NCBI GenBank assembly: GCA_017464345.1
Contig: JAFUAH010000004.1
Location: 1,269-65,268, forward strand
DNA length: 64,000 nucleotides
Source of the DNA: Bacteroidaceae bacterium
Lineage (GTDB): Bacteria > Bacteroidota > Bacteroidia > Bacteroidales > Bacteroidaceae
Reading direction: 5' to 3'
Shown: positions 804 through 55,613 of the stretch, piece after piece
How positions within the stretch are numbered: the stretch's first letter is position 1
Layout of the letters: each line of letters begins with the position of its first letter
The notes under the pieces: model-generated
Database searches by the model: none
Told to the model about the DNA's origin: nothing
The model's input: the letters and a program-made list of their open reading frames with translations, nothing else
Program-made: the position numbers and the translations under genes

Positions 804-2963
804 TTAAGAAACATCTGTATCATCTGTATGTGTATCGGTTTTGTTCTCTGTTTCGGCAGTGGATTCATGTGCCATGTAGTGGCGAATCTGGTGCATCTCA
901 TCGCCTGTGCGGCGCACAACGATGTAGCCGCGCGTGTTGCAGTAGGTGCGACGTTCGTAGCCCTGCTCTACGAAGGCACGTCCCAGGGCCACGGTGGAGA
1001 GTTTCTGTGTGATGCCCATGCCCACGATTTGCAGGGCCAGTGCCACGGACATAAACTCGCCGCCCTCACGCTCACTGGGTCGGCGGAAGTACATCTGCAC
1101 CAGTTCGTGTTCCAGCCGTGGCGTCTCGAACTGGCGGTTGTGGGCCGAGAGGCGCAGGATTTCCTCGCGGGAGAACCAGTAGCGGAAGCCCTGGCGATAG
1201 AGGGCGTAGGCCTGACGGTAGATGGCCTCGTAGTCGAAGGGCGTTTCGCGGGGCGAACGGATGTGCTCCACCTCGAACGGCAGCCAGCGGCGGTTGCCCG
1301 TGGGGTCGGAGAGGAACTGGACGTTGTTGCCCGTGCCGCAGAACGAGGCGATGTGCTTGCGGTGCTCGTGGAAGTGGGCGTAGGCGGCGCGCTCGTCGAT
1401 GGAGGGCATCGTCACGGCGGCCTTCAGTTGGTTGAGGTCGCGGGGCGACATGGTGTCCAGTTCCTCGCAGCATACGAGGCCGTACTGCGCCAGGGTCAGC
1501 AGGTCGTCGCGCCCCATGCGGTTGGCGTTGGTCTTGGTGTAGAAATATCTTGACAGTTCGGGCGGCAGGAGGTAGTTGAACCACGTGGTCTTGTACGACC
1601 CCTGTTCGCCGATGAGCACCAGTATGACGTTGTTTACCACCGCATCGTCCACCCACGCGGCCACCATGCCCACGAGCCACTTCCGCAGGTACAGGCAGAA
1701 CAGCCGTTGCTCCGCCTCGCCGCCCTTCACCGTTACCGTCTCGGCCAGGGTGCGGATGGGGTCAGGACCAGACCCACCCCCCGCCCTCCCTGTGAGGGAG
1801 GGAGTGGGGAGGGTCTCCAGATATTCCCTGAACGGATGGAATTCGGGCACGAAGTCGCTCTCTATCACGCGGTAGATGTCCTGTGCCCTGACGGCCTTGC
1901 GCTTCGACAGTTCCGCCCACAGCGAATTGACCACGCGGTCGGTGATAGGTTGCCAGTCTGGCCCGTACTCCACCCGCCCCGTTATCACATTGTGCCGTAA
2001 TCGGATATGTTCCTTTAGGAACGCCTGTATCTCCTCCACCGTGGCCAGGCCGCCGTTGTCCCCACCGTGTCCGTGAGGGTGCTTCTGTCCGCCCCGTGTA
2101 CCATGTTCCTCCGTCTTCTCGTAGCACGATGCCACCACTTCGGCCGCCTTGTCGTAGTCGGGAAATTCCTTGACAGCCCACTCCATGGCCGCCTCCCTTG
2201 TACACCCGAACTGGTTCAACCGGTAGCCCACGCGCATCACGTAGTCGTTGTGCGAGCCGGGCGCATACACCGCCCCCTCGCTCTCCACCTCCGGCCTGAT
2301 GGTCTTCGCGTAGAGCGCGCGGATGCGGGCCAGTTCGCGGTTGCGCTTGCGGCTCTCCTTCATCGGCTGCTGCATCCGTTCCCATTCGCCCTCTATCCAT
2401 TCTCGGCTGAACGCCTCGGCCTCGGGGTTGTAATAGACCTCGCTGTCGTGCGCCACCACGGACAGGCGCGTCACGTTCTTGCAATGGCCGTCCGCCTCGG
2501 CCCCCAGGAGCCGCTCGTAGTAGGCATTGCCCGCCGCGAACGCCTTCCGGTAGAACTGCACCTGCTGCCGGAGTTCGAACCCCTCATCCAGTTCGTAGCG
2601 GTACAGCACCCGCAGCCCCTCCCCGCTGATGGTCGTATAGCACAACAGCGTATGCGGGTCGGCCATAATTAAGGATTTCAATCCTTCCATTTTTCCATTT
2701 TTCAATGTTTCAATTTTATCAATATCGACCATCGCCATGCCCGTCAGCCTCACGACATGCTTCTGTGCCTTGCCGCCCTCGAAGATGCACGGCACGGCGA
2801 AGAGCATACTCTCGTTCTTCAGCGAGTCCTGCCTGTCCTGCCGATACCCTTCGGTCAGTTCCCGCGTCCGCCGGTCAGAGCGAATCGCCTCCACCATCGC
2901 CTCCAGCGTACTGCTCCGAGGCACCGTGTCCCAGAAGTTCCGAAATACTGATACTTCCACCAT
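804..2963 (-). CDS. VirE-family / BT4734-like primase-helicase (P-loop NTPase) of a mobile element
   Basis: The long ORF extends to 3014; I prefer the start at MVEVSVFRN. The N-terminus is a BT4734/PriCT-like region. The central Walker A is LIGEQGSYKTTW, followed by a VirE-like core (RRWLPFEV). Confidence 0.8.
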   Translation of the reverse strand: MVEVSVFRNFWDTVPRSSTLEAMVEAIRSDRRTRELTEGYRQDRQDSLKNESMLFAVPCIFEGGKAQKHVVRLTGMAMVDIDKIETLKNGKMEGLKSLIMADPHTLLCYTTISGEGLRVLYRYELDEGFELRQQVQFYRKAFAAGNAYYERLLGAEADGHCKNVTRLSVVAHDSEVYYNPEAEAFSREWIEGEWERMQQPMKESRKRNRELARIRALYAKTIRPEVESEGAVYAPGSHNDYVMRVGYRLNQFGCTREAAMEWAVKEFPDYDKAAEVVASCYEKTEEHGTRGGQKHPHGHGGDNGGLATVEEIQAFLKEHIRLRHNVITGRVEYGPDWQPITDRVVNSLWAELSKRKAVRAQDIYRVIESDFVPEFHPFREYLETLPTPSLTGRAGGGSGPDPIRTLAETVTVKGGEAEQRLFCLYLRKWLVGMVAAWVDDAVVNNVILVLIGEQGSYKTTWFNYLLPPELSRYFYTKTNANRMGRDDLLTLAQYGLVCCEELDTMSPRDLNQLKAAVTMPSIDERAAYAHFHEHRKHIASFCGTGNNVQFLSDPTGNRRWLPFEVEHIRSPRETPFDYEAIYRQAYALYRQGFRYWFSREEILRLSAHNRQFETPRLEHELVQMYFRRPSEREGGEFMSVALALQIVGMGITQKLSTVALGRAFVEQGYERRTYCNTRGYIVVRRTGDEMHQIRHYMAHESTAETENKTDTHTDDTDVS

Positions 2964-3269
2964 AATCTTTTCATCCTTTAAGTAACTAATCAAAAACGAC
3001 TTTATTTTTAACACAGAGAATATCTTTTTTAGTGGAATTATACAAGAGGCATCGAAGATGCTGCACAGAGAGGCTACGCCCTTCTTGGACGAGCGGTGTC
3101 TCGCCGTAGGCCTCTGTGTAAGACCTTTGGTCTCTCTTGCGTCCTCTCATAAAATGATAATCTCTGTGTTGAATGCTTAGGCAAAGTTACGGCAATTCGC
3201 AGAGAGCAACAAGCATCTGCACGGCGATGTTCGTTCGCCGTGCGATTATTCAACCCATAGGTTACAAAC

Positions 3270-3431
3270 TCAGTCCCGGAAAAGGTCGCGGACGCGCACA
3301 TCGAGCGCATCCGCTATCTGGTGCAACCGTTCCAGCGAAGGGTCGCACCGCCCACTTATGAACTTGCTCATGGCCTGGGGCGAGATGCCAATCCGCCGGG
3401 CCAAGGCCGTTGCACTTACGTTTTTTCCCAC
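3270..3431 (-). CDS. XRE-family HTH protein; helix 1 is in another frame (apparent A6 homopolymer frameshift)
   Basis: Hand translation gives (V)GKNVSATALARRIGISPQAMSKFISGRCDPSLERLHQIADALDVRVRDLFRD*. An ATG at 3484 opens MKAKTRQYDSQLQLLRVMWEKT*, which would fuse in frame if the A6 run (3421-3426 on plus) were A7. Confidence 0.5.
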   Translation of the reverse strand: MGKNVSATALARRIGISPQAMSKFISGRCDPSLERLHQIADALDVRVRDLFRD

Positions 3432-3518
3432 ATCACACGCAGCAGTTGCAACTGCGAGTCGTACTGTCTTGTTTTTGCTTTCATTGCTTTTGTTACGATT
3501 AAAAAATTAGACAAAATA
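3341..3518. repeat. Left copy of 178-bp direct repeat (5' part and -7 region of the XRE gene)
   Basis: Hand alignment with 10293-10470 gives 170/178 identical positions with no indels. Confidence 0.9.
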
Positions 3519-3763
3519 AGTTGGGGAGTGCAAAGGTACTCTATTTCCTTATGCACCCAAAACTATTAACGATATTTGTGCTACGGATTCACGACTATTA
3601 CAAATTGAATATGCATTGTGGCAGAAGAAACGAGTAGGGGAGAATGGTTCGATTCTTAAATTGCATATCCTGCATCCCAGGTTGCACGGTACAAATACAT
3701 TGACCATAGGGATGAGCAAGGACGATAGGCTTTGGCCAAATCTTAATATATATGCACTTTCTG

Positions 3764-3794
3764 TTTGCAAATATGAGAATTATTTGTAATTTTG
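3764..3794 (+). promoter_or_regulatory. Bacteroidetes-type promoter (TTTG-N19-TAatTTTG) for the cassette's plus-strand operon
   Basis: TTTG lies at 3764-3767 and TAATTTTG at 3787-3794, with the ATG at 3812. This matches the published Bacteroides -33/-7 consensus TTTG / TAnnTTTG. Confidence 0.6.
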
Positions 3795-3811
3795 CAGAAA
3801 TATTTTCAATT

Positions 3812-4054
3812 ATGGAGAAACAAGCAGATAATAGCATTGCTAAGCGTTTCCTCAAAATGGAGATGCTTCGCCGTGGTATCAGTACAGAAGATTTACAAAT
3901 GTTGTTATCCAAACGGGGGCACACCTATACTCTGTCAAGCATCAACAGCAAAATAAGCCGTGGCACATTCAGTGCCTCCTTCATGATAGAGTGTCTTGAG
4001 GCAATGAAATGCGACAAAATAGAACTCAATAATATCGTTGTAGACAATGAGTAG
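3812..4054 (+). CDS. DUF6471-like small HTH protein (putative regulator of the cassette)
   Basis: MEKQADNSIAKRFLKMEMLRRGIS...INSKISRGTFSASFMIECLEAMKC matches the DUF6471 pattern (..NKISRGKFSA.F..QCL.A.). The ORF track starts at 3752; the ATG at 3812 fits the promoter. Confidence 0.6.
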   Translation: MEKQADNSIAKRFLKMEMLRRGISTEDLQMLLSKRGHTYTLSSINSKISRGTFSASFMIECLEAMKCDKIELNNIVVDNE

Positions 4055-6587
4055 TTGTATCAACAAATTAGTTCAATATGTCAATACCTCGCTTAGATAT
4101 CATGACAAAGCGGGAATGGATGAGATATGTGCATCCATTGCCATCATGTATACCATCAAAAGACTTTCAGAATCAGGTCTAAATGGAAATCCATTCCAAG
4201 ATGAATATACGGTATTGAAACTCCACTTTAATGATTTGGTTGAAAGTTACGACCACTATACAAGCCAACTACCTTCTGAGCAACTGCAACAAATTAGCAG
4301 CCTTCTTGATGACATACTCAAAGCCAATGCCAAAGATGACAATATGGTCTCATGGATATATCAGGAACTGAAATCGACTTTAGCCAAGGATGCCTTGAAG
4401 AAAATTGGAAGCGGTAAGAACAAACTGACAGGTAACGAGATTCTCGTCCAAACCCAGTTCTTTACTGACAGTTATATGGTTAGGTACCTTGTTGACGAAA
4501 CTTTCGACCTATGTGAAAAAAATCTTCCGCAGGTCGTGTTTATCGACCCGGCCTGTGGCGGTGGCAATTTCCTGACGTACATCTACACCAAATTGTTCAA
4601 CTGGTACTCCGCCCACACTGATAATGACGCAGAGGTTATTAACTCACTAATTCTCAAAAACAATATCATCGGTTACGACCTTGACAAAAAGCTGTCAAGA
4701 ATAGCAGCATTATCATTATATACGTGTAGCAGACTTCACTCCAGCATCCCAAATACAACAGAAGTATTTGTTTACGGAGGTCTCAATGATGACCCTAAAG
4801 GCTTCCTTGCGAATCATGTCAAATCCAACGCCATTGGGGGAATAGACCTATCGCAGAGGCTGGCATCCATACGTGAGCAGGAAGCCCCCATCGTTTATGT
4901 CACCAACCCACCATTTATGGGAAAAAGAGACATGGATACCAGTTTGAAAGAATACCTGCAAAGCTATTATTCCAGGTCAAAAGGTGACTTGTGCTTTACC
5001 TTCATGGAGCAGATTATGCGCAGTATGCGAGAGCAAGACATTTTTGCCGCAGTTACTCAAAACGGTTGGATGTCTTTGTCATCCATGAAGGATTTCCGTA
5101 GAATGTTACTTGATAAATATTATCTCCGTACATGTATTGATATGGGGCCTAATGCCTTTGAGAATATCAATGGCGAGAAAACCAACATCGTTCTGTCTGT
5201 TATCACAGGTAAGAAGCCAAAGGATGGGCTACATAGTTCCTTTGTCAATCTGAGAGGGCATAATATGGTCGATAAACGAACGGCCTTGTCTAAACGCAAC
5301 TATGAAGTATATTCCGTATGCCAGGATAATTTCTGGCACAATTCCAATCTTGAATTTTGCTATCAATTAGGCAATGACTTCGAACTATTCAAGTCAATGC
5401 ACCGATATAGCGTATTGGGGAAGTGCATGCAGGGTTCTTCGACTGGTGACAACAAATTGATGGTGAAATATATATGGGAAACCGACGAGGAGGGATGGGT
5501 GCTTGCCAGCAAGGGCGGAGGTTACAGCAAGTGGGGAGGCCTTAACTTCTACAAAGTAAAGTGGGGCAAGCGGGGAGAACTACTTAAAGGCAACAAAGGA
5601 AGTGCCCTGAGGAATTCTAGCGAGATAGACAATACGGCCATTGTATATAGCGACACAGGCACATTAGGATTAAGTACCAGAGAACGGCTTGACGGTCAAG
5701 TATTCATTGCTTCTGGGCCTGGCATCAAGGTGTTGAAAGGAGATCCTCTTTGTCATCTTGCTTTCCTGAACTCAAAGTTGGCCACCTATTTCCTAAAGGT
5801 CTTGAATCCTAAGTTTACGGTGAGTGCTGGCTACATTGGAAAGATACCCGTAGCCGACGGAATCCTAGACAGCCCTTTCATATCATCACTGGCAGCCAAG
5901 TGTATCAGGCTCAAGCAGGAATATTTAAGCAGAAAACTTCCAAACTTCGAATTCGTACATGTGGACTATAAGGCCATATTAGACGTGGACTGCTATGTGG
6001 AGGCATGTATTAAAGAGGATGTATTTAACCAATATCGCCGCTATGTGTATGAGCAAGCCATTGATATGTTTATTTTGGATAAATACCAACTCTCTGATAC
6101 ACAGGAAAAAGAGTATGAAAAGATGACTGGCAGCAATATGACCTACACTGGAGACCTGCTGAACATGCGAAAAATTGACAAAATGCTTGCATCCACGATG
6201 AATGGCTGCTGCCAGTCTGTAAGTCGGAAGTTGAACGGATACATCATAGGAACAGAAAATTGCATCGACATGATTTCTTATATGTATTCACTGCGCCCCA
6301 AGGACATTGCCAGATACCTCATAGAGAACGTATCGTCTTTGTCTATTACCAAACGACTGTATAAAAGAGACTTGATACACAAATTGATATTGCAGACTTC
6401 AGGAATATATTCTTTGTCACACGTCCAGCCAGTATTATCCTTGACGGTGGATGACATCCATGCACAACTCATGGAAAACTATCCTGAATTGTATCGGCTA
6501 CTGCAAATCACACCAGAGACGATAAGGGAGATTATTAGTGTAGTTCATCAGAAATGCTTCTTCAATCATCCCATTCTTAAATTATGA
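4047..6587 (+). CDS. N6-adenine DNA methyltransferase, PglX/BREX-like gamma-class architecture
   Basis: Motifs are QTQFFTDSYMVRYLV, motif I FIDPACGGGNFL and motif IV VTNPPFMGK, followed by a long C-terminal region (presumed target recognition). The ORF overlaps both neighbours (8 nt and ATGA). Confidence 0.75.
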   Translation: MSSCINKLVQYVNTSLRYHDKAGMDEICASIAIMYTIKRLSESGLNGNPFQDEYTVLKLHFNDLVESYDHYTSQLPSEQLQQISSLLDDILKANAKDDNMVSWIYQELKSTLAKDALKKIGSGKNKLTGNEILVQTQFFTDSYMVRYLVDETFDLCEKNLPQVVFIDPACGGGNFLTYIYTKLFNWYSAHTDNDAEVINSLILKNNIIGYDLDKKLSRIAALSLYTCSRLHSSIPNTTEVFVYGGLNDDPKGFLANHVKSNAIGGIDLSQRLASIREQEAPIVYVTNPPFMGKRDMDTSLKEYLQSYYSRSKGDLCFTFMEQIMRSMREQDIFAAVTQNGWMSLSSMKDFRRMLLDKYYLRTCIDMGPNAFENINGEKTNIVLSVITGKKPKDGLHSSFVNLRGHNMVDKRTALSKRNYEVYSVCQDNFWHNSNLEFCYQLGNDFELFKSMHRYSVLGKCMQGSSTGDNKLMVKYIWETDEEGWVLASKGGGYSKWGGLNFYKVKWGKRGELLKGNKGSALRNSSEIDNTAIVYSDTGTLGLSTRERLDGQVFIASGPGIKVLKGDPLCHLAFLNSKLATYFLKVLNPKFTVSAGYIGKIPVADGILDSPFISSLAAKCIRLKQEYLSRKLPNFEFVHVDYKAILDVDCYVEACIKEDVFNQYRRYVYEQAIDMFILDKYQLSDTQEKEYEKMTGSNMTYTGDLLNMRKIDKMLASTMNGCCQSVSRKLNGYIIGTENCIDMISYMYSLRPKDIARYLIENVSSLSITKRLYKRDLIHKLILQTSGIYSLSHVQPVLSLTVDDIHAQLMENYPELYRLLQITPETIREIISVVHQKCFFNHPILKL

Positions 6588-8929
6588 ATTACCTCCAATT
6601 ATATAGGGATACCTTGTCAGCCGTTTTGGCAACTCGACAAAAGGATGGTGCAATCATTGACCCTGCCCAGACACACAGACTGATGGTCACCGCCCGTGCT
6701 TATTTTGTAGTTTATTGTTATGTGGTGTCCCATGCTTATAAATGGGGCAGTGCTATGAGCACGCTTGAAGATTGCATCAACTGGATAAAGAAGAATCTTT
6801 CACCAGAAAATCCATTCCTGCTTGTATACGAACAAACAGATGGACAAATCAACTCATGCATAGAATATTATTTGCGACAGATAGACTCTGAAAGCCTTTC
6901 CTGTAATGTGGGTATCATCTATGAAACGCTGCTGCAAATTGATGTCAGTGGAAGTTCTGTAATTGACGGAGATACTTCAAGGAACAGTCAAGGTAGTTAC
7001 TATACTCCAAGTAAACTTGCATCATACGTAACAGAATCTGTCATCGCCAACTATGTAGAAAATAATGGTTTTGAGGCATTGGGCAAGGCTCGCATTCTTG
7101 ATTTTTCATGCGGATCAGGTGTTTTCCTGACAGAAGCACTTCGCAGCATAGGTAAAACCATGAGGATGTCGAAGGCTGGACTATCGGAGTTTGTAGAGAA
7201 TCTATATGCCTGTGATGTGGATTTCATTGCTTTAGAGATATGCAAGTTCAACATCATGGACTTTATCGAAGACATAGGCATATACGCTAAGTTATCCAAA
7301 AATTTCAAGCATGCAAATTTCCTTTTGGACACGATGAATGAGAAGGATAACATTGAAAAGATAAACTCCTATCTTGATGGCTTTCTGTATCACAAGGACC
7401 TTGCCATAGGCATTGACTTCTTGTCAGAATATGACATTATTCTTGGCAACCCGCCATGGGAGAAAATAAGGTTTGAGGAAAAGAGTTTCTATGCACAATA
7501 CGAATCATCCATCGGCAAGTTGAACTTCAAACCCAATTTGCAGACAGGCATAGAGAGTGCAGAGGTTTCGAATCTGCTACTAAAGAACTATTGTCAACAA
7601 TACAGGCAACAAATAATAGACACCAAGGCATTTATCAAAGTCTCGCCACGTTTCGCAGCCTCTTGCGCTGGAGAACTCAATACGAGCAACCTGTTTACAG
7701 AGGCTGCATACAACCTCATGTCAGGAAAAGCATGTGTAGGGATTATCATCAAGAGTTCCACTATTGCCACTAAGGCCAGTAAGCCCTTGTTCGTGAAAAT
7801 CTGTGATAGGATTGATACTGTCTTTGACTTTATCAACCGAAAAAGATACTTCAATATTGACAATAGGGAGAGGTTTACGCTATTGATGATGGATAACAAG
7901 CCACACCAAGGCTTTAGACTGGCTATGAACGTTCATGATGTTGACAGTATAGAGGAGAACATTGTTAAAATTACGAAAGAGGAACTGCACCTCCTTAATC
8001 CCGAGACAGAAATGATTCCCAATCTCTCTTCCTCGAAGGATTTGCCTATCATGCTGTCCATCTATAAGACTTTTAATACTATTGCTGACGAATTCCCGAA
8101 GTTAAAGTACGGCAGACTAGTTCATTTTACGAATCACGCTACAGACATAGAGCGAGAACAAGGGCCGAACAACATCCCTGTCTATGAAGGGAAATTCTTT
8201 TCTGCTTTTGATGGGATGTACGCAGGTTTTAACCATATTCCTGAAACCGACAGATACAAAGCAAAAGCCCATGCGCGAAAGTTGTCTGATAAAGAAAAGC
8301 GGAATCATTGTTATCCCGAGTCGAGATTCTTTATCAAGAAGAGGAAATGGAAAGCATTGTCAGCAACCTATAAAGACGATTATATGTTGGCCTGGCATAG
8401 CCTGACATCGGCCACCAACGAACGCGCTTGCATAGCAACGATACTGCCTTTCATGCCAGCCTCACAGTCTGTTCAGTTTCTGACAACTGGCTCCACTGAT
8501 GCGCTGGTCTATTTGTGTTGCCTATTCAACTCGGTAGTGTTTGACTATATTGTGAAGAACAAATTGACAGGCATCGACCTGACCCAAAGTTTCATCAAGC
8601 AGATCGCAATCCCCAGCATTGACGAGGTGAAAACATACGTTGTTAATTACTGCGGGAAAGCCACCAATGTCTTTTCGCTCCTTCACGATATTTGCAGGAC
8701 GATACTTAAAGACGACGAGCGTTTGACAGCCCTATGGCCACAAAACAAGGACTTGGGTCACATTTTACCGTCAGGCAGAAGGGATTTACTTGTCCTAATG
8801 GATGCGCTGATTTCCCTTGTATATCAGATTCCCGAGGATGATTTGAAATACATCTTCACATCATATTCAAACTATTCAGCAAGTGAGACTGAAAGTATAA
8901 TTGCACAAATTACTCGTCTAAAGGCTTAA
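6584..8929 (+). CDS. N6-adenine DNA methyltransferase, Eco57I / Alw26I-Eco31I-Esp3I-like
   Basis: Motifs are GSYYTPSKLA, motif I ILDFSCGSGVFL and motif IV LGNPPWEKIRF. The C-terminal half is unassigned. Confidence 0.75.
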   Translation: MNYLQLYRDTLSAVLATRQKDGAIIDPAQTHRLMVTARAYFVVYCYVVSHAYKWGSAMSTLEDCINWIKKNLSPENPFLLVYEQTDGQINSCIEYYLRQIDSESLSCNVGIIYETLLQIDVSGSSVIDGDTSRNSQGSYYTPSKLASYVTESVIANYVENNGFEALGKARILDFSCGSGVFLTEALRSIGKTMRMSKAGLSEFVENLYACDVDFIALEICKFNIMDFIEDIGIYAKLSKNFKHANFLLDTMNEKDNIEKINSYLDGFLYHKDLAIGIDFLSEYDIILGNPPWEKIRFEEKSFYAQYESSIGKLNFKPNLQTGIESAEVSNLLLKNYCQQYRQQIIDTKAFIKVSPRFAASCAGELNTSNLFTEAAYNLMSGKACVGIIIKSSTIATKASKPLFVKICDRIDTVFDFINRKRYFNIDNRERFTLLMMDNKPHQGFRLAMNVHDVDSIEENIVKITKEELHLLNPETEMIPNLSSSKDLPIMLSIYKTFNTIADEFPKLKYGRLVHFTNHATDIEREQGPNNIPVYEGKFFSAFDGMYAGFNHIPETDRYKAKAHARKLSDKEKRNHCYPESRFFIKKRKWKALSATYKDDYMLAWHSLTSATNERACIATILPFMPASQSVQFLTTGSTDALVYLCCLFNSVVFDYIVKNKLTGIDLTQSFIKQIAIPSIDEVKTYVVNYCGKATNVFSLLHDICRTILKDDERLTALWPQNKDLGHILPSGRRDLLVLMDALISLVYQIPEDDLKYIFTSYSNYSASETESIIAQITRLKA

Positions 8930-10157
8930 TGAAACCGTATGCACGGCCCGTTCCGTTTCCACCTCTTGCCCAGTCAGAGGACTGTGATACCAACGTGTCA
9001 TATTCGGATTCTTCAAGAATGTACAACTTGTATTTATCGGCTCGACCAATCCTCTCGAATACGAGAATCTTATGCATGAATCCACCGGGCAGCCCCAATC
9101 TAGGCTTGGAAATATCTGTCAGTTTCTCTTTTCCTATAGTTTCCCCCTTTAGTTGTATTCGCCAATTACTATTGTCAGTAGCATATAGAATCGTATTATT
9201 CTTGTAGGCCTTCCCATTATAGACTAAAGTGATGTCCTTGGTCTGGGCATGATTATCCTTGTCGATACCAAAGAACTCCACAGAGCCAGGTTTCTTCACA
9301 CCATTAAGTTTTCCTTTTGCCGAAAGGTCAAGTATGTTTCTTGAGCCTCCTGTCATCCTTTTTGTCTCTATCCACATACTTTCTCCCGCCAACTCTATGG
9401 ATGCCGTATGATATTTGATGTCGCTATTGGTTGGCTCCAACACTTCTGCCCTTACTCTCTTATTGGTACTTTTCCTAAGTCCTCTTCTTTTAATTTCTCC
9501 AAATGTATCTTTCAGTTTCTTAATATCAGAAAGAGACGTGGTAGTCAGTTTTCTTAATTGTTCATTAGTGAATACTCTTGTTGTTTTCTCTGGAAGTACA
9601 ATTTTTGCATTGACAAGCGTGAGCAGAACTTTCTCTGTCAGTTCTTTGCATGAAGTAGCCTCTCCATTAAGGAAACTATTGTAATAGTCGAAGATATCCG
9701 ATAATAGTTCCCGCCCATTTGTATCGTCTTTTTCATAAATATTTTCCACACAGATGGAGGCTTCCACATTTTGGAACAGACCTGATGTCGTGAGATTGGA
9801 AGAGCCAACAATAATGAAGTATTGTGCATTTCCCTCAAACGTGTATATTTTAGGATGATAAACAACCTTGTTGGGGGAATATACGATATAGGTAGGGATG
9901 CGTTCTGCCATCAGCAATTCAAGCGCCTCCTTGGATGTGGCATGCAAATTGACACCTATATATAATCGAACCTTACCGCCACGCTGAATGAACTTCTTCA
10001 AATTAGGAAGAATCTGCTTGACACCACCAGCACTGACAAAAGCCACAAATGCAGAAAAGTCCAGGTAGTCTGCACGCTCAAGAATCTCATTGATAACATC
10101 CCCAGCAGGTTTATCACCTGGTAAAGACAAACCTTGTCCAATGAATTTAACATCCAT
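8910..10157 (-). CDS. PLD-superfamily (single HKD) nuclease with unassigned C-terminal domain; candidate restriction endonuclease (BfiI/NgoFVII-like)
   Basis: The N-terminal domain has VVYHPKIYTF...IIVGSSNLTTSGL (HxK...GSxN). About 190 C-terminal residues carry no motif I recognise. The 3' end overlaps the convergent methylase gene by 20 nt. Confidence 0.7.
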   Translation of the reverse strand: MDVKFIGQGLSLPGDKPAGDVINEILERADYLDFSAFVAFVSAGGVKQILPNLKKFIQRGGKVRLYIGVNLHATSKEALELLMAERIPTYIVYSPNKVVYHPKIYTFEGNAQYFIIVGSSNLTTSGLFQNVEASICVENIYEKDDTNGRELLSDIFDYYNSFLNGEATSCKELTEKVLLTLVNAKIVLPEKTTRVFTNEQLRKLTTTSLSDIKKLKDTFGEIKRRGLRKSTNKRVRAEVLEPTNSDIKYHTASIELAGESMWIETKRMTGGSRNILDLSAKGKLNGVKKPGSVEFFGIDKDNHAQTKDITLVYNGKAYKNNTILYATDNSNWRIQLKGETIGKEKLTDISKPRLGLPGGFMHKILVFERIGRADKYKLYILEESEYDTLVSQSSDWARGGNGTGRAYGFIKPLDE

Positions 10158-10263
10158 ACTCTATCACTTTCTCCAATAATATAAACATATTGATTCTTAT
10201 GTGCAAAAATACAAAAAAAATTGGATAGTAAAGAATGTGCTATGCAGAAATGCAAAATACTAT

Positions 10264-10383
10264 CTAAAAATGTGCAATCAGAGGCGCGTCATGGTCGCAC
10301 CGCCCACTTATGAACTTGCTCATGGCCTGGGGCGAGACACCAATCCGCCGGGCCAAAGCCGTTGCACTTACGTTTTTTCCCAC
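10264..10383 (-). pseudogene. Truncated copy of the XRE HTH gene (inside the right direct repeat)
   Basis: Hand translation gives (V)GKNVSATALARRIGVSPQAMSKFISGRCD, then divergent HDAPLIAHF*. It has the same A6 tract and the same upstream short frame as the left copy. Confidence 0.6.
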
Positions 10384-10470
10384 ATCACGCTCAGCAGTTG
10401 TAACTGCGATTCGTACTGTCTTGTTTTTGCTTTCATTACTTTTGTTACGATTAAAAAATTAGACAAAATA
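10293..10470. repeat. Right copy of 178-bp direct repeat
   Basis: See 3341-3518. Confidence 0.9.
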
Positions 10471-10516
10471 GGTATGGAAATGCCTGTGCAAGCACAGACA
10501 TTATGATTGAAATAAT

Positions 10517-10555
10517 TTGGGAGTGCAAAGATTTTGAAAATCTCGGCACTCCCAA
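10517..10555. terminator. Nested hairpin (TTGGGAGTGC...GCACTCCCAA with inner GATTTT-G-AAAATC)
   Basis: Perfect 10-bp outer arms read directly from the sequence. It lies at the right boundary of the mobile region. Confidence 0.4.
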
Positions 10556-10626
10556 GCGATTCCTAATAGTTTTATTCCTCACAGAAGTCTTCCTTGCCAA
10601 CACCGTAAGGGGGAATGTGTTAATAA

Positions 10627-10770
10627 TTATGCTATTGCCTTGGCAAATTCCCATCCGTAATCCCTGTAGTCATCAAGTGTAGTAGTATCAGGCACCCAGA
10701 GTTTGCCAATGCCGTCGTTCACCAGTTCAAAGCCAGCCTCGGCGAGTTTGAGGCTAATCTGCTTTGCCAT
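10627..10770 (-). CDS. Possible 47-aa small protein coupled to the cupin gene
   Basis: Hand translation gives MAKQISLKLAEAGFELVNDGIGKLWVPDTTTLDDYRDYGWEFAKAIA*. Its ATG overlaps the cupin stop (TAATG). It is below the ORF-track length cutoff. Confidence 0.3.
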   Translation of the reverse strand: MAKQISLKLAEAGFELVNDGIGKLWVPDTTTLDDYRDYGWEFAKAIA

Positions 10771-11126
10771 TATGCTTTCTCGAATTTAACTTTCTGGCTG
10801 ATGTCGTCTTTTATCATCGTGATAATCATCTTGAACGGCTCCACGGCATTGACGGCATGAGGCGCATTGGCGGGGATGATGAATGTCTGGCCTGCTTCCA
10901 GAGTGTGGGCCGTGCCGCTGACGGAAATCTCCATCAGTCCGTCGATGATTTGCAGCACAGCATCAAACGGAGCCGAGTGCTCAGATAGTTGCTGACCCTT
11001 GTCGAAGGAGAACAGCGTGACGCTGCCACCCTCGGTGTGAATGAACTCTTTTGAAACGATGCCACCCTCGGCATAGTCAATTGCTTCGTTGGCTATGAAA
11101 GCCTTTCCTTTTTCTATTGTTGCCAT
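10770..11126 (-). CDS. Cupin-domain protein
   Basis: 118 aa. The pattern G..L.EHSAPFDAVLQIIDG...G....L.AGQ..IIPAN.PHA is typical of cupin_2. Confidence 0.7.
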   Translation of the reverse strand: MATIEKGKAFIANEAIDYAEGGIVSKEFIHTEGGSVTLFSFDKGQQLSEHSAPFDAVLQIIDGLMEISVSGTAHTLEAGQTFIIPANAPHAVNAVEPFKMIITMIKDDISQKVKFEKA

Positions 11127-11283
11127 AGTCTTCAGTATTTATACCTTGTCATCAACAAACCCGCAAAGACCGTGCCAGACGAAAAGTTGGAAACATTTGT
11201 GTCCACTCTGAAGAATCATGTAGGCTGAGCAGGCGATAATTTGGCAGAATTTTGTATCTTTGCGGCAAAATTCAACTGACAAG

Positions 11284-11970
11284 ATGGAAACAAAAGTGAC
11301 CAAGGCATTGTTGCTATGCCCTCTTTTCGAGGGGTTGACGGCAGACGAGATAGAACAGGCGATGTCAGCCGTCAACTATCGACTGGTACATTTCGACAAG
11401 AACGATGTCTATGTGCTGGCAGGCTTTCCTTGTCGCTATGCGGATATTATCGTGGAGGGCGAGTTGACTGCCCGTATGGTAGGCCCTTCCGGTAAGTTTG
11501 TACAGATGGCGACTCGCACCATGGGCAACCTATTGGCACCCGCTTTTATCTTCTCGAAAGACAATAGGATGCCCGTGAGCATTGAGACCAATTCGTCCAC
11601 CATCGTTCTGCGCATGTCTCCCGATGAATTACTGCAACTGATGAAGTCAGACGACCGCATCCATCTGAATTTCATTCGCCAGCTGTCGGCTGTAGGCCAG
11701 TTCCTTGCCAGGAAAGTGCGGATGCTTACCCTCCACACCGTTCGGGAAAAGGTGGCCATCTTCCTGCTTGAAGAAGCCAAGAAGTGCGGTTCCGATAGTT
11801 TCACCCTGAAGAAATCCCGTCAGGAGATTGCTGACAGTTTTGCCATTCAGAAGTTCTCCCTGCAGCGTTGCCTTAATGAGTTGGTAGCAGAGGGAACCAT
11901 CTTGTTAGATGGCAAGCATATAATCATTATAGACAAACAGAAATTAATGTCATTTGGGGCGGTTCCCTAA
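11284..11970 (+). CDS. Crp/Fnr-family transcriptional regulator
   Basis: A cNMP-binding-like N-terminus plus a C-terminal HTH (SRQEIADSFAIQKFSLQRCLNELVAEG). TATCTTTG at 11255-11262 supports the ATG at 11284. Confidence 0.75.
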   Translation: METKVTKALLLCPLFEGLTADEIEQAMSAVNYRLVHFDKNDVYVLAGFPCRYADIIVEGELTARMVGPSGKFVQMATRTMGNLLAPAFIFSKDNRMPVSIETNSSTIVLRMSPDELLQLMKSDDRIHLNFIRQLSAVGQFLARKVRMLTLHTVREKVAIFLLEEAKKCGSDSFTLKKSRQEIADSFAIQKFSLQRCLNELVAEGTILLDGKHIIIIDKQKLMSFGAVP

Positions 11971-12819: not shown

Positions 12820-13234
12820 CCAGCCAAGAACATTCCAACCGCTCGACCCGTTGCTGCACGCCGAACTCCGGCTGGCCGTCGTGTCGCTGCTCATCAGCGT
12901 GGGAGAGGCCGAATTCCCCTATATAAAGGAGAAGACGGGAGCCACGGCGGGCAACCTCAGCGTGCAGATAGACAAACTCTCGGCGGCAGGTTACATCGAG
13001 GTCGAAAAGACCTTCAAGGGCAAGAAGCCCTGCACCCGTTGCCGCATTACGCCCACAGGGCTGAAAGCCTTTGAGGCATACGTCGATGCACTGAAAACTT
13101 ACCTTGAAGTAAACGAGGTCGAAAAGACCTTCAAGGGCAAGAAGCCCTGCACCCGTTGCCGCATTACGCCCACAGGGCTGAAAGCCTTTGAGGCATACGT
13201 CGATGCACTGAAAACTTACCTTGAAGTAAAGTAA
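12812..13234 (+). CDS. Winged-helix regulator (HTH_34-like) with duplicated C-terminal 39 residues
   Basis: LDPLLHAELRLAVVSLL....EFPYIKEKTGATAGNLSVQIDKLSAAGYIEVEKTFKGKKPCT matches the HTH_34 pattern. The C-terminal wing and helix occur twice. Confidence 0.75.
   Translation: MSDQPRTFQPLDPLLHAELRLAVVSLLISVGEAEFPYIKEKTGATAGNLSVQIDKLSAAGYIEVEKTFKGKKPCTRCRITPTGLKAFEAYVDALKTYLEVNEVEKTFKGKKPCTRCRITPTGLKAFEAYVDALKTYLEVK
12997..13230. repeat. Perfect 117-bp tandem duplication (2 units) inside the regulator CDS
   Basis: Units 12997-13113 and 13114-13230 are identical by direct comparison. Confidence 0.9.
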
Positions 13235-13279: not shown

Positions 13280-14845
13280 ATGAAAAGACTATTTACATTG
13301 ATTATGCTGTTGTGTGCCATGAGCATGCAGGCAGAGACGGCGAAGCCCCGACTGGTGGTGGGCATTATGGTGGACCAGATGCGATGGGACTACCTGGAGC
13401 GGTACAAGGACCGTTACTGCGAGGGCGGATTCCGACGGATGATGGACGAGGGATACAACTGTACGCGCTGCCTGATAAACTACATCCCGGCCGTGACGGC
13501 AGTGGGCCATACGTCGGTCTATACGGGTTCGGTGCCCGCCTTCCACGGCATCACGAACAACTATTTCTATGTAGATGGGAAGGGCACATCGGCCCCCTAC
13601 GACGAAGATATGGCAACCGTGGGCAGCGAGACGAAGGCTGGCAAGCGGTCGCCCCACCTGATGATGGGCACGACGATGGGCGACGAACTGCGCATGGCCA
13701 CAAACTTCCGTTCGAAGGTCATCGGTGTGGCCATCAAGGACCGGGCCTCCATCCTGCCCGCCGGCCATTCGGCAAATGCCGCTTACTGGCTCGACGACAC
13801 GGACGACCGTTTCATCACCAGCACATACTACATGAAGGAACTGCCCCAGTGGGTGGTGGATTTCAACAAACACAACAAGAGCAAGGAATACATGAAGCGC
13901 GACTGGCCCGCGAAGATGATGTACCCCGAGGACACCTACGTGCAGAGCCATCCACGCGACACGCGCATTGAGCACACCGTGGGCAAGGACATCCGCTCAA
14001 CGCCCTGGGGAGCCACATTGACGCTGGACATGGCCCGTGCTGCCGTGGAGGGCGAACAACTGGGCAGCGACGAGTTCACCGACATGCTCTGCGTCAGCAT
14101 CTCCTCCACCGATGCCATTGCCCACCGCGTGGGATGCAACTCGCAGTACATCGAGGATGCCATGCTCTGGCTCGACCACGACCTGGAGGCCTTCTTCACC
14201 TTCCTCGACAAGCAGGTGGGCAAGGGACAGTGGACGGCCTTCCTGACCGCCGACCACGCCGGTAGCCACAACCTGCAGTGGCGCATGGACCACAAGATAC
14301 CCGCCCAGGTGTGGGAATCGACACAAGTCGTAAAGGACCTGAACCAGAAAATCGCCGATGAAACGGGCGTTACGGAAAACGTCGTGAAGAACATCGCCAG
14401 TTTCAAGGTGCTGCTGGATGAGGCCATTATCCGTGAGAAAGGTCTCGACCGCAATCGCGTGGCCGACATCGTCACCGGACACCTGCGCCAATTGTCGTGG
14501 GTAGAGTACGCCTACGACGTGGAGCGCATTCCCGACTACATCCCCGAGCCTCTGCGCACGATGACGCGCAACGGATATTACCCCGGCCGCACGGGGCAGA
14601 TACAGATTATCCCCACGGGCGGCGTGATGGAAGCCTTCAGTTACGGAGAGGGACAGAACCTGAAGGGTGCCAGCCACATGCTCTGGGGCCCCGACGACAC
14701 GCACATACCCCTCGTATTCGTGGGCTGCGGCGTGCCGAAGGGCGAGAACCACCACACGGTGCACATTACCGACATCGCCGCCACCATCTGCTCACTGCTG
14801 CGCATCCAACAGCCTTCGGCCTGCGTCGGCGAACCGATATTCTGA
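13280..14845 (+). CDS. Alkaline phosphatase / nucleotide pyrophosphatase family protein (PafA-like), secreted
   Basis: Signal peptide MKRLFTLIMLLCAMSMQA. Motifs are VVGIMVDQMRWDY, TAVGHTSVYTG and LTADHAG. TACCTTTG at 13250-13257 lies upstream. Confidence 0.8.
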   Translation: MKRLFTLIMLLCAMSMQAETAKPRLVVGIMVDQMRWDYLERYKDRYCEGGFRRMMDEGYNCTRCLINYIPAVTAVGHTSVYTGSVPAFHGITNNYFYVDGKGTSAPYDEDMATVGSETKAGKRSPHLMMGTTMGDELRMATNFRSKVIGVAIKDRASILPAGHSANAAYWLDDTDDRFITSTYYMKELPQWVVDFNKHNKSKEYMKRDWPAKMMYPEDTYVQSHPRDTRIEHTVGKDIRSTPWGATLTLDMARAAVEGEQLGSDEFTDMLCVSISSTDAIAHRVGCNSQYIEDAMLWLDHDLEAFFTFLDKQVGKGQWTAFLTADHAGSHNLQWRMDHKIPAQVWESTQVVKDLNQKIADETGVTENVVKNIASFKVLLDEAIIREKGLDRNRVADIVTGHLRQLSWVEYAYDVERIPDYIPEPLRTMTRNGYYPGRTGQIQIIPTGGVMEAFSYGEGQNLKGASHMLWGPDDTHIPLVFVGCGVPKGENHHTVHITDIAATICSLLRIQQPSACVGEPIF

Positions 14846-14890
14846 GGATATTTTCTTTAACCACGAATTACAGGAATCATATTTTCTTTC

Positions 14891-14983
14891 TTAACTACGA
14901 ATTACACGAATTTTACGAATTATTGCCTTCGGCGTTATTTGAGGGCGTAGCCAATTCGTAAAATTCGTGTAATTCGTAGTTAA
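14891..14983. terminator. Perfect 31-bp-arm inverted repeat between convergent genes; loop carries TTGCCTTCGGCGT...GGCGTAGCC
   Basis: Arms 14891-14921 and 14953-14983 are exact reverse complements, read directly. Confidence 0.6.
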
Positions 14984-15002
14984 AAATATTATTAATTAAT
15001 GT

Positions 15003-16184
15003 CTATTTCAGTATCTCCGTCAGCAGTGCCTTGACGTGTCCGGGCACCACGATGTGGTGGTTGCCAATCGGGTCGGTCAGGAAGTACTGCATCAGTGACG
15101 GGTCGTCCAACCGTATCACCTGTTGCGTACGGCAGAGGTTCGGGCGCGCCTCGTTTCGGAGCAGGGTGCCCTCGGCGACGAAGTGCCGACGGAGGTCGCC
15201 CGAGACCTTGAAGAGCGTGACGTCGCCCTCGCGCATGTAGCCCCGTATGCCCACGCCGATGCCCGACTCGAAGTGCGTGTCCAATTCGTAGCGCTCCACC
15301 ATGTCGAGGGGGATGGTGCAGTGGGCGAGCGTCATCTCTCCCTGCTCGGGGTCGATGCGGGCCGGATTGGCCTGGAAGCCCGATACGCCCGTCAGCGAGC
15401 GGACAATCATCATCGACAGCATGGCGGGCACGTCGCCCTCGCATCCGGCCACCAGCCCCATTCCCGAACTTTGTTCGCCTACCCGTAGCCCCTGGCTGTT
15501 CAGTCGGGCCAAGGCCAGGCACCCCGTATTGTGGACAGCCGACAGGAGGTCGAAGCACCGAATCGTGAAGCCCTGTAGGCGGTTGTCCTCGGTCACGCGC
15601 TTCAGCGCCTCGTATATCTTTTCGGCGCCCGGCAGACCAGCCTCCACCTCGCCCGGCAGGGCTTGCAGCACCTCGTCCATCGGTATGTCGATGAGTTCTA
15701 TGCCCAAGCGTCGGCGCACCTCGTCGCGGTCGGCATGGCTCGATATCAGCCAGTCGCTGGGCTGCCCGATGATGCCCAGCCGTGCGCCCCGGAGTTGCCG
15801 TTTGGCCAGTGCCACGCGCTCCAGCACGTCGATGCGCCGACGGACGTACTCGGCCGTTCCGTGCAGAATCTCCCCTTGCAGCCCCTGCTGGCGCAGATAG
15901 GAAAGAATCTCCATCGAAGCCGCCAGCGAATTGCTGGTGCCCGACGTGAGCAGGTAGAACGGCCCGCCCGCCTTCTGCAACTGGGGCAGCAAGGTCTTGA
16001 AAATGCCCTCCGTACCGCCCGTGCGCACATAAATCAGACTCAGCACCGACTGCCCGTAATCGGCATAGTCGGCACCCTTCATTTCATACTCGATGCCCAG
16101 CGAACTCAGGAACTCGCGGGTACTGGCAGCCACGGCCTCCTCGTCGTGCAACTGCGATGTCAGTGTATAGATAGCAATATTCAT
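15003..16184 (-). CDS. L-fucose/L-arabinose isomerase-like family protein
   Basis: The architecture resembles the fucose-isomerase family by eye. TACCTTTG (16189-16196, minus) lies 4 nt upstream of the ATG at 16184, so the longer ORF to 16283 is unlikely. Confidence 0.6.
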   Translation of the reverse strand: MNIAIYTLTSQLHDEEAVAASTREFLSSLGIEYEMKGADYADYGQSVLSLIYVRTGGTEGIFKTLLPQLQKAGGPFYLLTSGTSNSLAASMEILSYLRQQGLQGEILHGTAEYVRRRIDVLERVALAKRQLRGARLGIIGQPSDWLISSHADRDEVRRRLGIELIDIPMDEVLQALPGEVEAGLPGAEKIYEALKRVTEDNRLQGFTIRCFDLLSAVHNTGCLALARLNSQGLRVGEQSSGMGLVAGCEGDVPAMLSMMIVRSLTGVSGFQANPARIDPEQGEMTLAHCTIPLDMVERYELDTHFESGIGVGIRGYMREGDVTLFKVSGDLRRHFVAEGTLLRNEARPNLCRTQQVIRLDDPSLMQYFLTDPIGNHHIVVPGHVKALLTEILK

Positions 16185-16392
16185 GCTCCAAAGGTACGAA
16201 TAAGCGAGCGATTTCCCAAATATATTTGAGGAAATCCGTAATCGGACGGCCAAAGGCCTACGCTTGCGTAGTTTACGGAGCAAGAACGGCAGTACCTAAG
16301 ACCGAAGGTCAAAGGTACGAATATTTTTTTTATATCCTCACCCTTCTTCTTGAAAACTTTTGTTACCTTTGCCTTATAAATGCTACTAACGA

Positions 16393-18363
16393 GTGAAGAA
16401 ACTCTGTACAATACTGGCTATAGTTCTTTTGTGCTTTCAAGGAACAGCGCAAAATATCTACACGTGGCAAGATTTTGTGAACGAGATATCTGACGACGCG
16501 TATGCCGAGGAGCAGGGCTGGACGGAGCAGATGGAGGAACTGGCCCTGCTGGCGGCGCATCCCATGGACATTAACACGGCCACACAAGAGCAGTTGAGAC
16601 AGTTACCCTTCCTTACAGATAAACAGATAGAGGAGATACACGAATATGTGTTCCTGCACCGAGGTATGCGCTCGATAAGTGAATTAATGGCCATTTCATC
16701 GATAGATTTTCGCACCCGGCGGTTCCTTTCGCTCTTCCTTTATGCCGACCAAGCGGCGTTTGCCCGTCGAGATACACTGACACTGAAAAGCCTGCTGCAC
16801 AATAGCCGACACGAGGCTGCCGTGCGCATGGACATCCCATTATATTATCGCGATGGATATAGTTATCCCCCCCAACAGGGAGGTTACAATGGCAGTGCCC
16901 TGTACAACAACGTACGCTATCGGATGAAGAGTCAGCAGCACTTGGACCTCGGGCTATTGGCTGAGAAGGACCAGGGCGAACCCTTTCGCAAAAACAGCGG
17001 ATGGGACCACTACGGACTGCACGTGATGGTGCGTGACATAGGCATACTGCGCACGGCCATCGTGGGCGACTACAAGATGGGGTTCGGCGAGGGACTGGTG
17101 GTGAACACGGGCTTCACGACGGGAAAATCCAGTCTGATGGGACGTCCCAGCCAGGGCATCCGTGCCCATCAGGGACTGGACGAAGTGAACTTTTTCCGAG
17201 GTGGGGCCGCCACATTCCGAGTGAAGAAAGCGGAGCTAACGGCCTGGGTGTCGCACCGAAAACTGGATGCCACACTGAACAGCGACGGCACCGCACGGAC
17301 GCTACTCACCTCAGGACTGCACCGCACGGACAGCGAACTGGACAAGAAGGGTAACCTGGGCAGTACCCTGGCCGGAGGCAACGTGGCGTGGCAGCATAAG
17401 GGTGTACACCTCGGTGCTACGGGCTATTTTCAGCGGTTTCATCCGAATTTGTCGCCTGGCACAGCCCTCTATCGACGCATCTATCCAATGGGGCGAAACT
17501 TCGGTGTGGTGAGCATGAACTACGGCTACACCCACCTCTGGTTTTCCGTATCGGGCGAGACGGCCTACAGCACTAATCAGGGTGGATGGGCCACGCTGGA
17601 ACGTGCGAGTTGGAAAATCAGTCCCCGATATACCCTGAGCGGGTCGTATCGCTTCTATTCATACAAATACTACTCTTTCTATGCCTCTGCCATCGCGGAA
17701 AACAGCCACGTTCAGAACGAAAGCGGTGCCACGCTACGACTGGATGCCACGCCCGTGGGGCGTTTGTCGACGACCGTCTACGTCGACTTCTTCTATAATC
17801 CCTGGCCGACCTACACGACACCCCGCAGCAGTAGTGGACAGGAACTGACGGCCACGATCCAATATCAGTGGCGACAGCATCATACACTGTCGGTACGCTA
17901 TCAGTTAAAACACAAGGAACAATACGACCTCATGCGCTGGCACAACCGACTGCGACTGCAATACGTCTGGGCCAAAGCATCCTGGAGCCTACGGAGTCTG
18001 CTGAACCTGCACGCCATGGACGGCGACCGGCCGGGCTACGCTCTCTCGCAGCTGGTTCGCTACAAGCATACCACAGGGGACGTAGCCGTCATGGCCAGCT
18101 ACTTCGACACGCCCAACTACGACACTCGGGTCTTCGTCTATGAGCCCACGCTGAGCAACATGTTCCGCTATCCGTCGCTCTACGGAAGGGGAATCAGGTT
18201 GTCCGCCGTGGGCCGTTATTTTGTCTGGCACCGCCGCCTCTGTCTGGAAGTGCTCATCGGCAGCACCCGCTTCACCGACCGCAAAGTCCAAGGGTCGGGA
18301 ATGCAAAAAATCCGTAGTCCCTGGAAGAGTGACATCTCTGCCCAGATAGGACTACGGATATAA
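16393..18363 (+). CDS. Helix-hairpin-helix (ComEA-like) domain protein with large C-terminal beta-rich region
   Basis: GTG start and signal peptide KKLCTILAIVLLCFQGTAQ. The HhH segment is MDINTATQEQLRQLPFLTDKQIEEI...SISELMAISSI. About 500 aa follow with alternating aromatic/polar beta-strand-like patterns. Confidence 0.7.
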   Translation: MKKLCTILAIVLLCFQGTAQNIYTWQDFVNEISDDAYAEEQGWTEQMEELALLAAHPMDINTATQEQLRQLPFLTDKQIEEIHEYVFLHRGMRSISELMAISSIDFRTRRFLSLFLYADQAAFARRDTLTLKSLLHNSRHEAAVRMDIPLYYRDGYSYPPQQGGYNGSALYNNVRYRMKSQQHLDLGLLAEKDQGEPFRKNSGWDHYGLHVMVRDIGILRTAIVGDYKMGFGEGLVVNTGFTTGKSSLMGRPSQGIRAHQGLDEVNFFRGGAATFRVKKAELTAWVSHRKLDATLNSDGTARTLLTSGLHRTDSELDKKGNLGSTLAGGNVAWQHKGVHLGATGYFQRFHPNLSPGTALYRRIYPMGRNFGVVSMNYGYTHLWFSVSGETAYSTNQGGWATLERASWKISPRYTLSGSYRFYSYKYYSFYASAIAENSHVQNESGATLRLDATPVGRLSTTVYVDFFYNPWPTYTTPRSSSGQELTATIQYQWRQHHTLSVRYQLKHKEQYDLMRWHNRLRLQYVWAKASWSLRSLLNLHAMDGDRPGYALSQLVRYKHTTGDVAVMASYFDTPNYDTRVFVYEPTLSNMFRYPSLYGRGIRLSAVGRYFVWHRRLCLEVLIGSTRFTDRKVQGSGMQKIRSPWKSDISAQIGLRI

Positions 18364-54646: not shown

Positions 54647-54647
54647 A

Positions 54648-55514: not shown

Positions 55515-55537
55515 TTACATTAAAAAAACTGTTGTTT

Positions 55538-55613
55538 GTAACATCCAGCCCATCTTGGACAGCCATTCCGTCACCTTTGCCTCAACAGGTATGCTTTCGT
55601 GTAGTTTGCTCAT
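55538..55613. repeat. Copy B of 76-bp repeat: remnant hsdR start overlapping the hsdS stop
   Basis: It encodes MSKLHESIPVEAKVTEWLSKMGW..., versus the hsdR N-terminus MSTLHENIPVEAKVTEWLSKMGW. It overlaps the hsdS stop as ATGA. Confidence 0.85.

Follow-up and report, generated by a model that had tools for sequence, protein, structure and literature searches.

A predicted Type IIS-like restriction-modification cassette, probably inserted with long target duplication, in a rumen Bacteroidales island

Insertions of restriction-modification (R-M) systems that are accompanied by a long target duplication were first reported in 2000 (Nobusato et al., 2000, as cited in Furuta, Abe and Kobayashi, 2010, NAR 38:2428, PMC2853133). 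In the latter study an insertion is assigned to this class when the insert carries both R and M genes, when it is shorter than 20 kb and without mobility genes, when the flanking repeats exceed 30 bp, and when both repeats align to one copy in an insert-free genome. The published duplications span 46 to 423 bp, the cases described first are Type IIS systems, and the hosts are Proteobacteria, cyanobacteria, Thermus and an actinobacterium (PMC2853133). The primary insertion mechanism is unexplained in this literature; its authors propose a cycle in which an R-M system invades, is amplified by means of the repeats and is released again, and of these steps only the amplification is backed by evidence (PMC2853133). 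Here, we describe a locus of this kind in a stretch of 64,000 nucleotides (hereafter the window; GCA_017464345.1, contig JAFUAH010000004.1, positions 1,269 to 65,268) from a Bacteroidaceae bacterium, namely an R-M-like cassette that lies between two direct repeats (3341-3531 and 10293-10483) containing the 5′ end of an XRE-family helix-turn-helix (HTH) gene. The locus combines homologues of R and M genes, an insert of 6761 nt without a mobility gene, a repeat of 178-191 nt and a single copy of this repeat in an insert-free genome, which are all four features of the class as defined by Furuta et al. (2010). With a probability of roughly 0.75, it is an R-M insertion with long target duplication that took place just upstream of the XRE gene in a VirE-type island and duplicated about 180-190 bp. 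This figure refers to the best explanation as a whole, whereas the import of a pre-formed allele, discussed below, carries its own, lower confidence. The mode of insertion itself has thus been known since 2000, and the locus is a clean new example of it from the Bacteroidales.

Both repeats are oriented on the minus strand and are spaced 6952 nt apart. They share 93% identity over 191 nt, including a core of 178 nt with 170 identical positions and no indels. An earlier note, made from the letters of the window alone, had described this 178-bp core; the alignment agrees with it and extends it to 191 nt. A search of the whole assembly, a metagenome-assembled genome (MAG) of 1.9 Mb with a completeness of 61%, yielded exactly two copies (E = 2e-78), showing that the sequence is not a dispersed repeat. 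Each copy comprises about 47 nt 5′ of the ATG (position 3484 in the left copy), an upstream open reading frame (ORF) of 22 codons, a run of six A and codons 1-30 of the HTH ORF. For the intact XRE gene, the left repeat in this way supplies the 5′ untranslated region (UTR), part of the promoter and codons 1-30, and the right repeat presents the same segment again, with a truncated XRE ORF at its end that lies immediately 5′ of the nuclease gene of the cassette.

The state of the site before insertion is represented by G022 (MAG JAFUFK01), which was obtained from roe-deer omasum, belongs to a different species of the same genus and has the same island, with a baseline divergence from the window of 1.33% (85/6383). 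In its contig C3, the VirE gene, the XRE gene and a single copy of the repeat lead straight into the right flank known from the window. Both repeats of the window align to this one copy, and G022 shares both flanks without the insert. The VirE gene in the left flank of the target (804-3014, minus strand), which lies downstream of XRE and is a VirE/VapE-type primase-helicase-like gene according to Pfam, is 98.6% identical to its G022 counterpart. The insert is therefore foreign, and the repeat is target sequence that is single-copy in the empty-site genome. On the side of the occupied structure, the same arrangement across both repeats was recovered at 99.8-100% identity in five or more metagenome assemblies that are independent and derive from different samples, and the cassette was present in all eight assembled contigs with this exact VirE allele. 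Contigs from Logan break at 3489 and 10388, exactly at the two stretches of at least 31 nt that the repeats have in common. The occupied structure is real and fixed in all assemblies of the strain. The earlier note had asked for an empty site, in which one XRE copy lies directly upstream of the VirE gene, and G022 provides it, with its single copy joined to the flanks on either side. The note had also named an assembly artefact or a pair of independent paralogous genes as findings that would overturn its interpretation; since the empty site in G022 is accompanied by the occupied structure in at least five assemblies, the locus is neither.

The insert (3532-10292) has a GC content of 41.1% compared to 58% in the island to its left and 53% to its right, and is filled by four intact genes, which bears out the AT-richness and the four linked genes noticed in the sequence beforehand. 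Analysis of the Pfam domains of these genes did not reveal any recombinase, integrase, transposase or other mobility gene. The first gene (3812-4054, plus strand) codes for a small DUF6471 protein (PF20075, E = 3e-19) and keeps its position in related cassettes. It is followed on the plus strand by two Eco57I/N6_Mtase-type adenine methyltransferase genes, the first of which (4047-6587; 846 aa) is of the Eco57I/MmeI type, is PglX-like and contains an NPPF motif, while the product of the second (6584-8929; 781 aa) is of the Eco57I type, related to the Type IIS family of Alw26I, Eco31I and Esp3I, and contains an NPPW motif. The fourth gene (8910-10157, minus strand) codes for a PLD-family nuclease of 415 aa with the Pfam domains PLDc_2 and RE_NgoFVII, assigned by PADLOC to REase_II and DrmC, and its N-terminal domain resembles BfiI and NgoFVII (match to PDB 2C1L, BfiI, E = 1e-5). 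From its gene content, the cassette appears to be a Type IIS-like R-M system. In one assembly the nuclease was listed with 335 aa and was suspected to carry an inactivating mutation, but the DNA is identical and merely the gene call differs. The left margin of the insert (3532-3763) is an orphan stretch, for which homologues were sought in related cassettes and elsewhere without result; homology to related cassettes begins at about 3764. The first bases of this margin hold a TACCTTTG box on the minus strand, facing XRE. No Rfam family was detected in the region 2800-11300.

The XRE-family gene itself (3270-3484, minus strand; Pfam HTH_26/HTH_3) is split in frame by the run of six A. In the left copy the upstream ORF extends from 3484 to 3416 and a complete HTH ORF of 53 aa from 3431 to 3270. 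The XRE ORF of the right copy (10383 to 10264) has 39 codons and reads ...FISGRCD, followed by nine unrelated codons (HDAPLIAHF) and a stop. Both ORFs thus read as the first inspection of the sequence had described them, with a complete HTH on the left and divergence after ...FISGRCD on the right. The A runs (3421-3426 and 10373-10378) break the frame in both copies of the window and also in G022, while a homologue with 55% identity in G193 (L031) is encoded in one frame and reads ...EKNVS... at this place. This distribution suggests that the frameshift arose before the two repeat alleles separated and that it is tolerated, possibly with bridging of the two frames by an internal GTG start or by slippage. 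As a further observation on this gene, the right repeat brings the XRE 5′ UTR and promoter, along with the truncated HTH ORF, immediately in front of the nuclease gene, with which they are co-oriented (10157-10483), and the XRE fragment there resembles, by its place in the sequence, a gene in C-protein position. Promoter-like boxes of the cassette's own are also present in 10157-10483.

Compared to the published insertions with long target duplication, the locus is alike in having an R/M insert of less than 20 kb without a mobility gene, repeats of more than 30 bp, a GC content lower than that of the surroundings and a Type IIS-like gene content. It differs from the published list in its host, a rumen Bacteroidales, and from the published cases in that the two repeats appear to stem from two alleles of the locus and that the same strain has the geometry at two more sites, one of them with non-R-M cargo. 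With regard to gene content, the cassette is similar to BfiI-type Type IIS systems, in which a nuclease with a PLD catalytic domain and a DNA-binding domain goes with two methylases for an asymmetric site. The similarity lies in the N-terminal PLD domain of its nuclease and in the presence of two separate methylases, one of which is related to Alw26I, Eco31I and Esp3I. In contrast to these systems, the unit includes a DUF6471 gene and a first methylase that is PglX/MmeI-like, and the C-terminal half of the nuclease has no assigned domain. A long and slightly diverged duplicate of a gene end also flanks prophage e14 and phage 21 in icd, where the duplicate is about 165 bp long and its divergence reflects the gene version of the donor. 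Integration of these elements depends on an integrase with a short core site, and icd is made whole again by the copy that the element brings along. The cassette, by contrast, comes without an integrase; here the native-like copy belongs to the intact gene, and it is the diverged copy that forms a useless fragment.

The comparison of the left repeat, the right repeat and G022 (in left-copy coordinates) identified seven sites private to the right copy (3387, 3405, 3437, 3439, 3449, 3458 and 3486), one private to the left copy (3386) and three at which only G022 differs (3497, 3501 and 3508). Differences between the left repeat and G022 (3/177) are consistent with the baseline of the island, while those between the right repeat and G022 (9/177) exceed it (P = 7e-4). 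Along its length the left repeat is G022-like through 3486 and identical to the right repeat over 3487-3518, so that it looks mosaic by its sequence. The divergence of the right repeat continues into the adjoining flank (10484-11132, minus strand), which consists of an intergenic stretch with about 16% divergence from G022, the remnant of a flavodiiron-protein gene (10627-10770) with 10.8% (P < 1e-9) and a cupin gene (10770-11126) with 4.8% (P = 8e-6); from 11145 on, identity is back to 99.4%. The remnant is an ORF of 47 aa, in which the first five codons (MAKQI) are fused to the last 42 at a KQI microhomology. In G022, a full flavodiiron gene is followed by an enolase gene and a flavodoxin gene lies between the cupin and Crp genes, whereas the window has neither enolase nor flavodoxin and its flavodiiron gene is truncated. 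Immediately next to the right repeat, the dinucleotide CA (10291-10292) agrees with a natural XRE allele, that of L083, but differs from the left copy; L083, with a VirE relative of 99% identity, is a G022-like strain, and its contig stops after 30 nt of the repeat. Together with the following ~650 bp (5-16% diverged), the right repeat hence looks like one contiguous patch of foreign origin.

Since the foreign-looking patch comprises the right repeat together with the flank and the left repeat is apparently mosaic, we slightly favor the view that the duplication arose outside this lineage and that an allele with repeat, cassette and repeat was imported as a whole by double homologous recombination. 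The donor would have been a version of the same island, about 5% diverged and already in possession of the complete arrangement. A double crossover, the simplest single event to produce the pattern, would have brought in a tract from ~3487-3496, within the left repeat, to ~11140, covering the cassette, the right repeat and the flank. If the donor allele was already duplicated, the eight mismatches between the repeats would represent allelic differences and not decay. In support of an import, the three structural differences from G022 (enolase, flavodoxin and flavodiiron truncation) fall into the presumed imported tract, and the bases at 10291-10292 match an allele that segregates for XRE. Several points weigh against it. 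With a single empty-site genome at hand, the polarity of the changes in the flank is based on parsimony. The mosaic signal consists of three sites within 12 nt, which could be one mutational event in G022. When the cupin, nuclease, methylase and VirE proteins were looked up by exact match, neither a donor lineage nor an empty allele turned up but only the same strain, which was always occupied, and an exact 30-mer from the repeat was found in G022 only among genomes and not at all in the metagenomes of JGI. Finally, the original duplication itself is not seen in these data.

The earlier note had interpreted the geometry as the result of a Campbell-type integration, in which a non-replicating circle carrying the cassette and a 190-bp 5′ fragment of XRE undergoes one crossover with the resident XRE gene and leaves fragment, insert and gene in this order. 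This accounts for the insertion, the geometry and the pattern in the repeats. Between 3387 and 3486 the right repeat resembles a donor sequence, and the left copy would result as observed if the crossover took place to the right of 3486. In addition, recombination between repeats of this kind is expected to release a circle that retains one of them. Some Logan contigs, about 6.9 kb long, even correspond to the cassette plus one repeat; however, assembly breaks induced by the repeat account for them fully, and the circle junction was absent from all contigs. Besides reciprocal hybrid repeats, such a crossover predicts a native right flank, whereas this flank is diverged from G022 by 5-16% compared to a baseline of 1.3% and contiguous with the diverged right repeat. 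A Campbell-type event would also need G022-private changes at 3497-3508 and a separate event for the flank patch and the three indels, and we regard it as doubtful. The same flank bears on the classical reading of long target duplications, according to which the repeat arose at insertion in this lineage and the non-functional right fragment has since decayed faster than the left copy. The truncation of the gene in the right copy and the A run common to both copies agree with such a course. Nevertheless, seven private changes within 178 nt on the right against one on the left are difficult to reconcile with an island that is only 1.3% diverged, three of the six changes at coding positions are synonymous and another is a conservative D to E replacement, the adjoining flank is diverged far beyond neutral decay over an equal time, and the boundary bases at 10291-10292 match a segregating allele. 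A duplication made in place therefore appears improbable.

Transposition, or site-specific integration at an attachment (att) site with an integrase supplied in trans, seems very improbable for this locus, although the island is of the mobile-element type (VirE, DUF3990/DUF3791) and a related cassette (L036/L037) is flanked by a repeat of only 28 nt. In addition to the missing recombinase, neither the cassette termini nor an att core are conserved among relatives, and the flanking repeats vary from site to site in sequence and in length (22 to 237 nt). Terminal inverted repeats were not found, the duplication has 178-191 nt instead of being short, and the junctions of the three duplications of this strain share no common motif, as judged on reading. 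The earlier view that the repeat is not the target duplication of a transposase is upheld, as it is too long and too target-specific for this or for an att site. Compared to these alternatives, import of a ready-made allele accounts for the repeats and the flank by one event, and established recombination biology makes it plausible that the repeats should allow RecA-dependent deletion, amplification or release as a circle, the first of which would be the precise loss predicted in the earlier note.

The core of two methyltransferase genes and a PLD nuclease gene is spread across Bacteroidota and beyond. Among 179 genomes of the genus, the cassette was found only in the window's own genome, and neither species-representative genomes nor plasmids contained close DNA or protein relatives. 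Relatives of methyltransferase 1 with 62-73% identity sit in the same four-gene unit. Two loci (L042 and L045) have a common unit of 6.58 kb with 91.7% identity in unrelated contexts; an XRE-family gene beside the cassette in L045 was considered but is unrelated to the XRE gene of the window. Direct repeats of 45-237 nt flank about eight of the ~30 loci of this family with adequate flanks, while inverted repeats of at least 45 nt were found at none of the ~30. One of these loci (L087) has a 73-nt repeat over a gene end and terminator hairpin, and its empty site was confirmed in G220. Other relatives have repeats of only 22-28 nt or none, and no conserved cassette termini or att core were detected across the relatives. 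A separate observation concerns L040, where an IS21-type element (IstA/IstB; 14582-17221) lies between methylase 2 and the PLD nuclease and methylase 2 is truncated.

Within the same strain, the geometry is found at two additional sites. The recurrence at the insertion of a Fic gene, pointed out before, is confirmed: a Fic/Bro-N gene (54648-55514; insertion 54571-55605, minus strand) lies between hsdS and hsdR of a Type I R-M operon and is bracketed by two 68-nt copies of the hsdR 5′ end (54571-54638 and 55538-55605; 64/68 identical). Homologues with about 70% DNA identity are present in 52 of 178 other genomes of the genus, with homology confined to the gene, and none of nine such loci examined had flanking repeats. 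Judged by this distribution, the Fic/Bro-N gene behaves as a widely shuffled single-gene cassette. At the other site, two direct repeats of 114 nt (112/114 identical) bracket a 3.6-kb block to the left of VirE (L071:2616-6497, from contigs identical to the window); the second copy lies at 430-543 and the first 3.7 kb further to the left, beyond the window. The block codes for a radical-SAM/SPASM protein, a nitroreductase, HxlR, DUF3791 and DUF3990, none of them R-M functions, and internally it repeats 73 nt of the adjacent promoter. In G022 the 114-nt repeat is present once and the block is missing, and in strain L072/L147 an ABM-domain gene replaces the radical-SAM gene. The non-R-M cargo in the 114-nt duplication argues against a mechanism that needs restriction breaks. 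As one strain has the arrangement three times, with duplications of 178-191, 68 and 114 bp, it is tempting to speculate that insertion with long target duplication is a general, cargo-independent route in this Bacteroidales island and not a property of R-M systems. In this view, cassettes would alternate between a circular state and one flanked by repeats, and RecA-dependent recombination would return them to homologous islands. We consider this tentative and, for the time being, unlikely.

Two smaller features of the island were observed next to the locus. Between VirE and XRE (2955-3175), there is a repeated element of ~190-220 nt with imperfect terminal inverted repeats (3007-3029 and 3151-3173), of which about ten more copies with 78-83% identity are found on other contigs of the same genome (C1, C3, C5, C7 and C20) and which is not present at the corresponding site of G022; by its sequence it looks like an insertion resembling a miniature inverted-repeat transposable element. 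To the right of the cassette, an HTH_34 gene contains a perfect tandem duplication of 117 nt (12997-13230), which is polymorphic: L072, otherwise one mismatch from the window, and G022 have one unit each. Strain L074 differs from the window in 24 alignment columns, which are clustered at 12988-13105.

The entry of R-M and other defence cassettes into genomes without a recombinase has been an open question for 25 years. The locus adds a documented case with an empty site from the Bacteroidales, without revealing the primary mechanism, and it provides evidence that two repeats can be two alleles joined by homologous recombination. If this is true, some of the published duplications may record spread between relatives and not primary insertion. 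The repeated occurrence of long direct repeats around members of the methyltransferase-methyltransferase-PLD family across Bacteroidota makes this family suitable for a systematic study. Should cargo-independent cycling prove true, these rumen populations would offer a natural setting for observing the release step, which is lacking so far in Kobayashi's hypothesis of a 'virus-like life cycle'.

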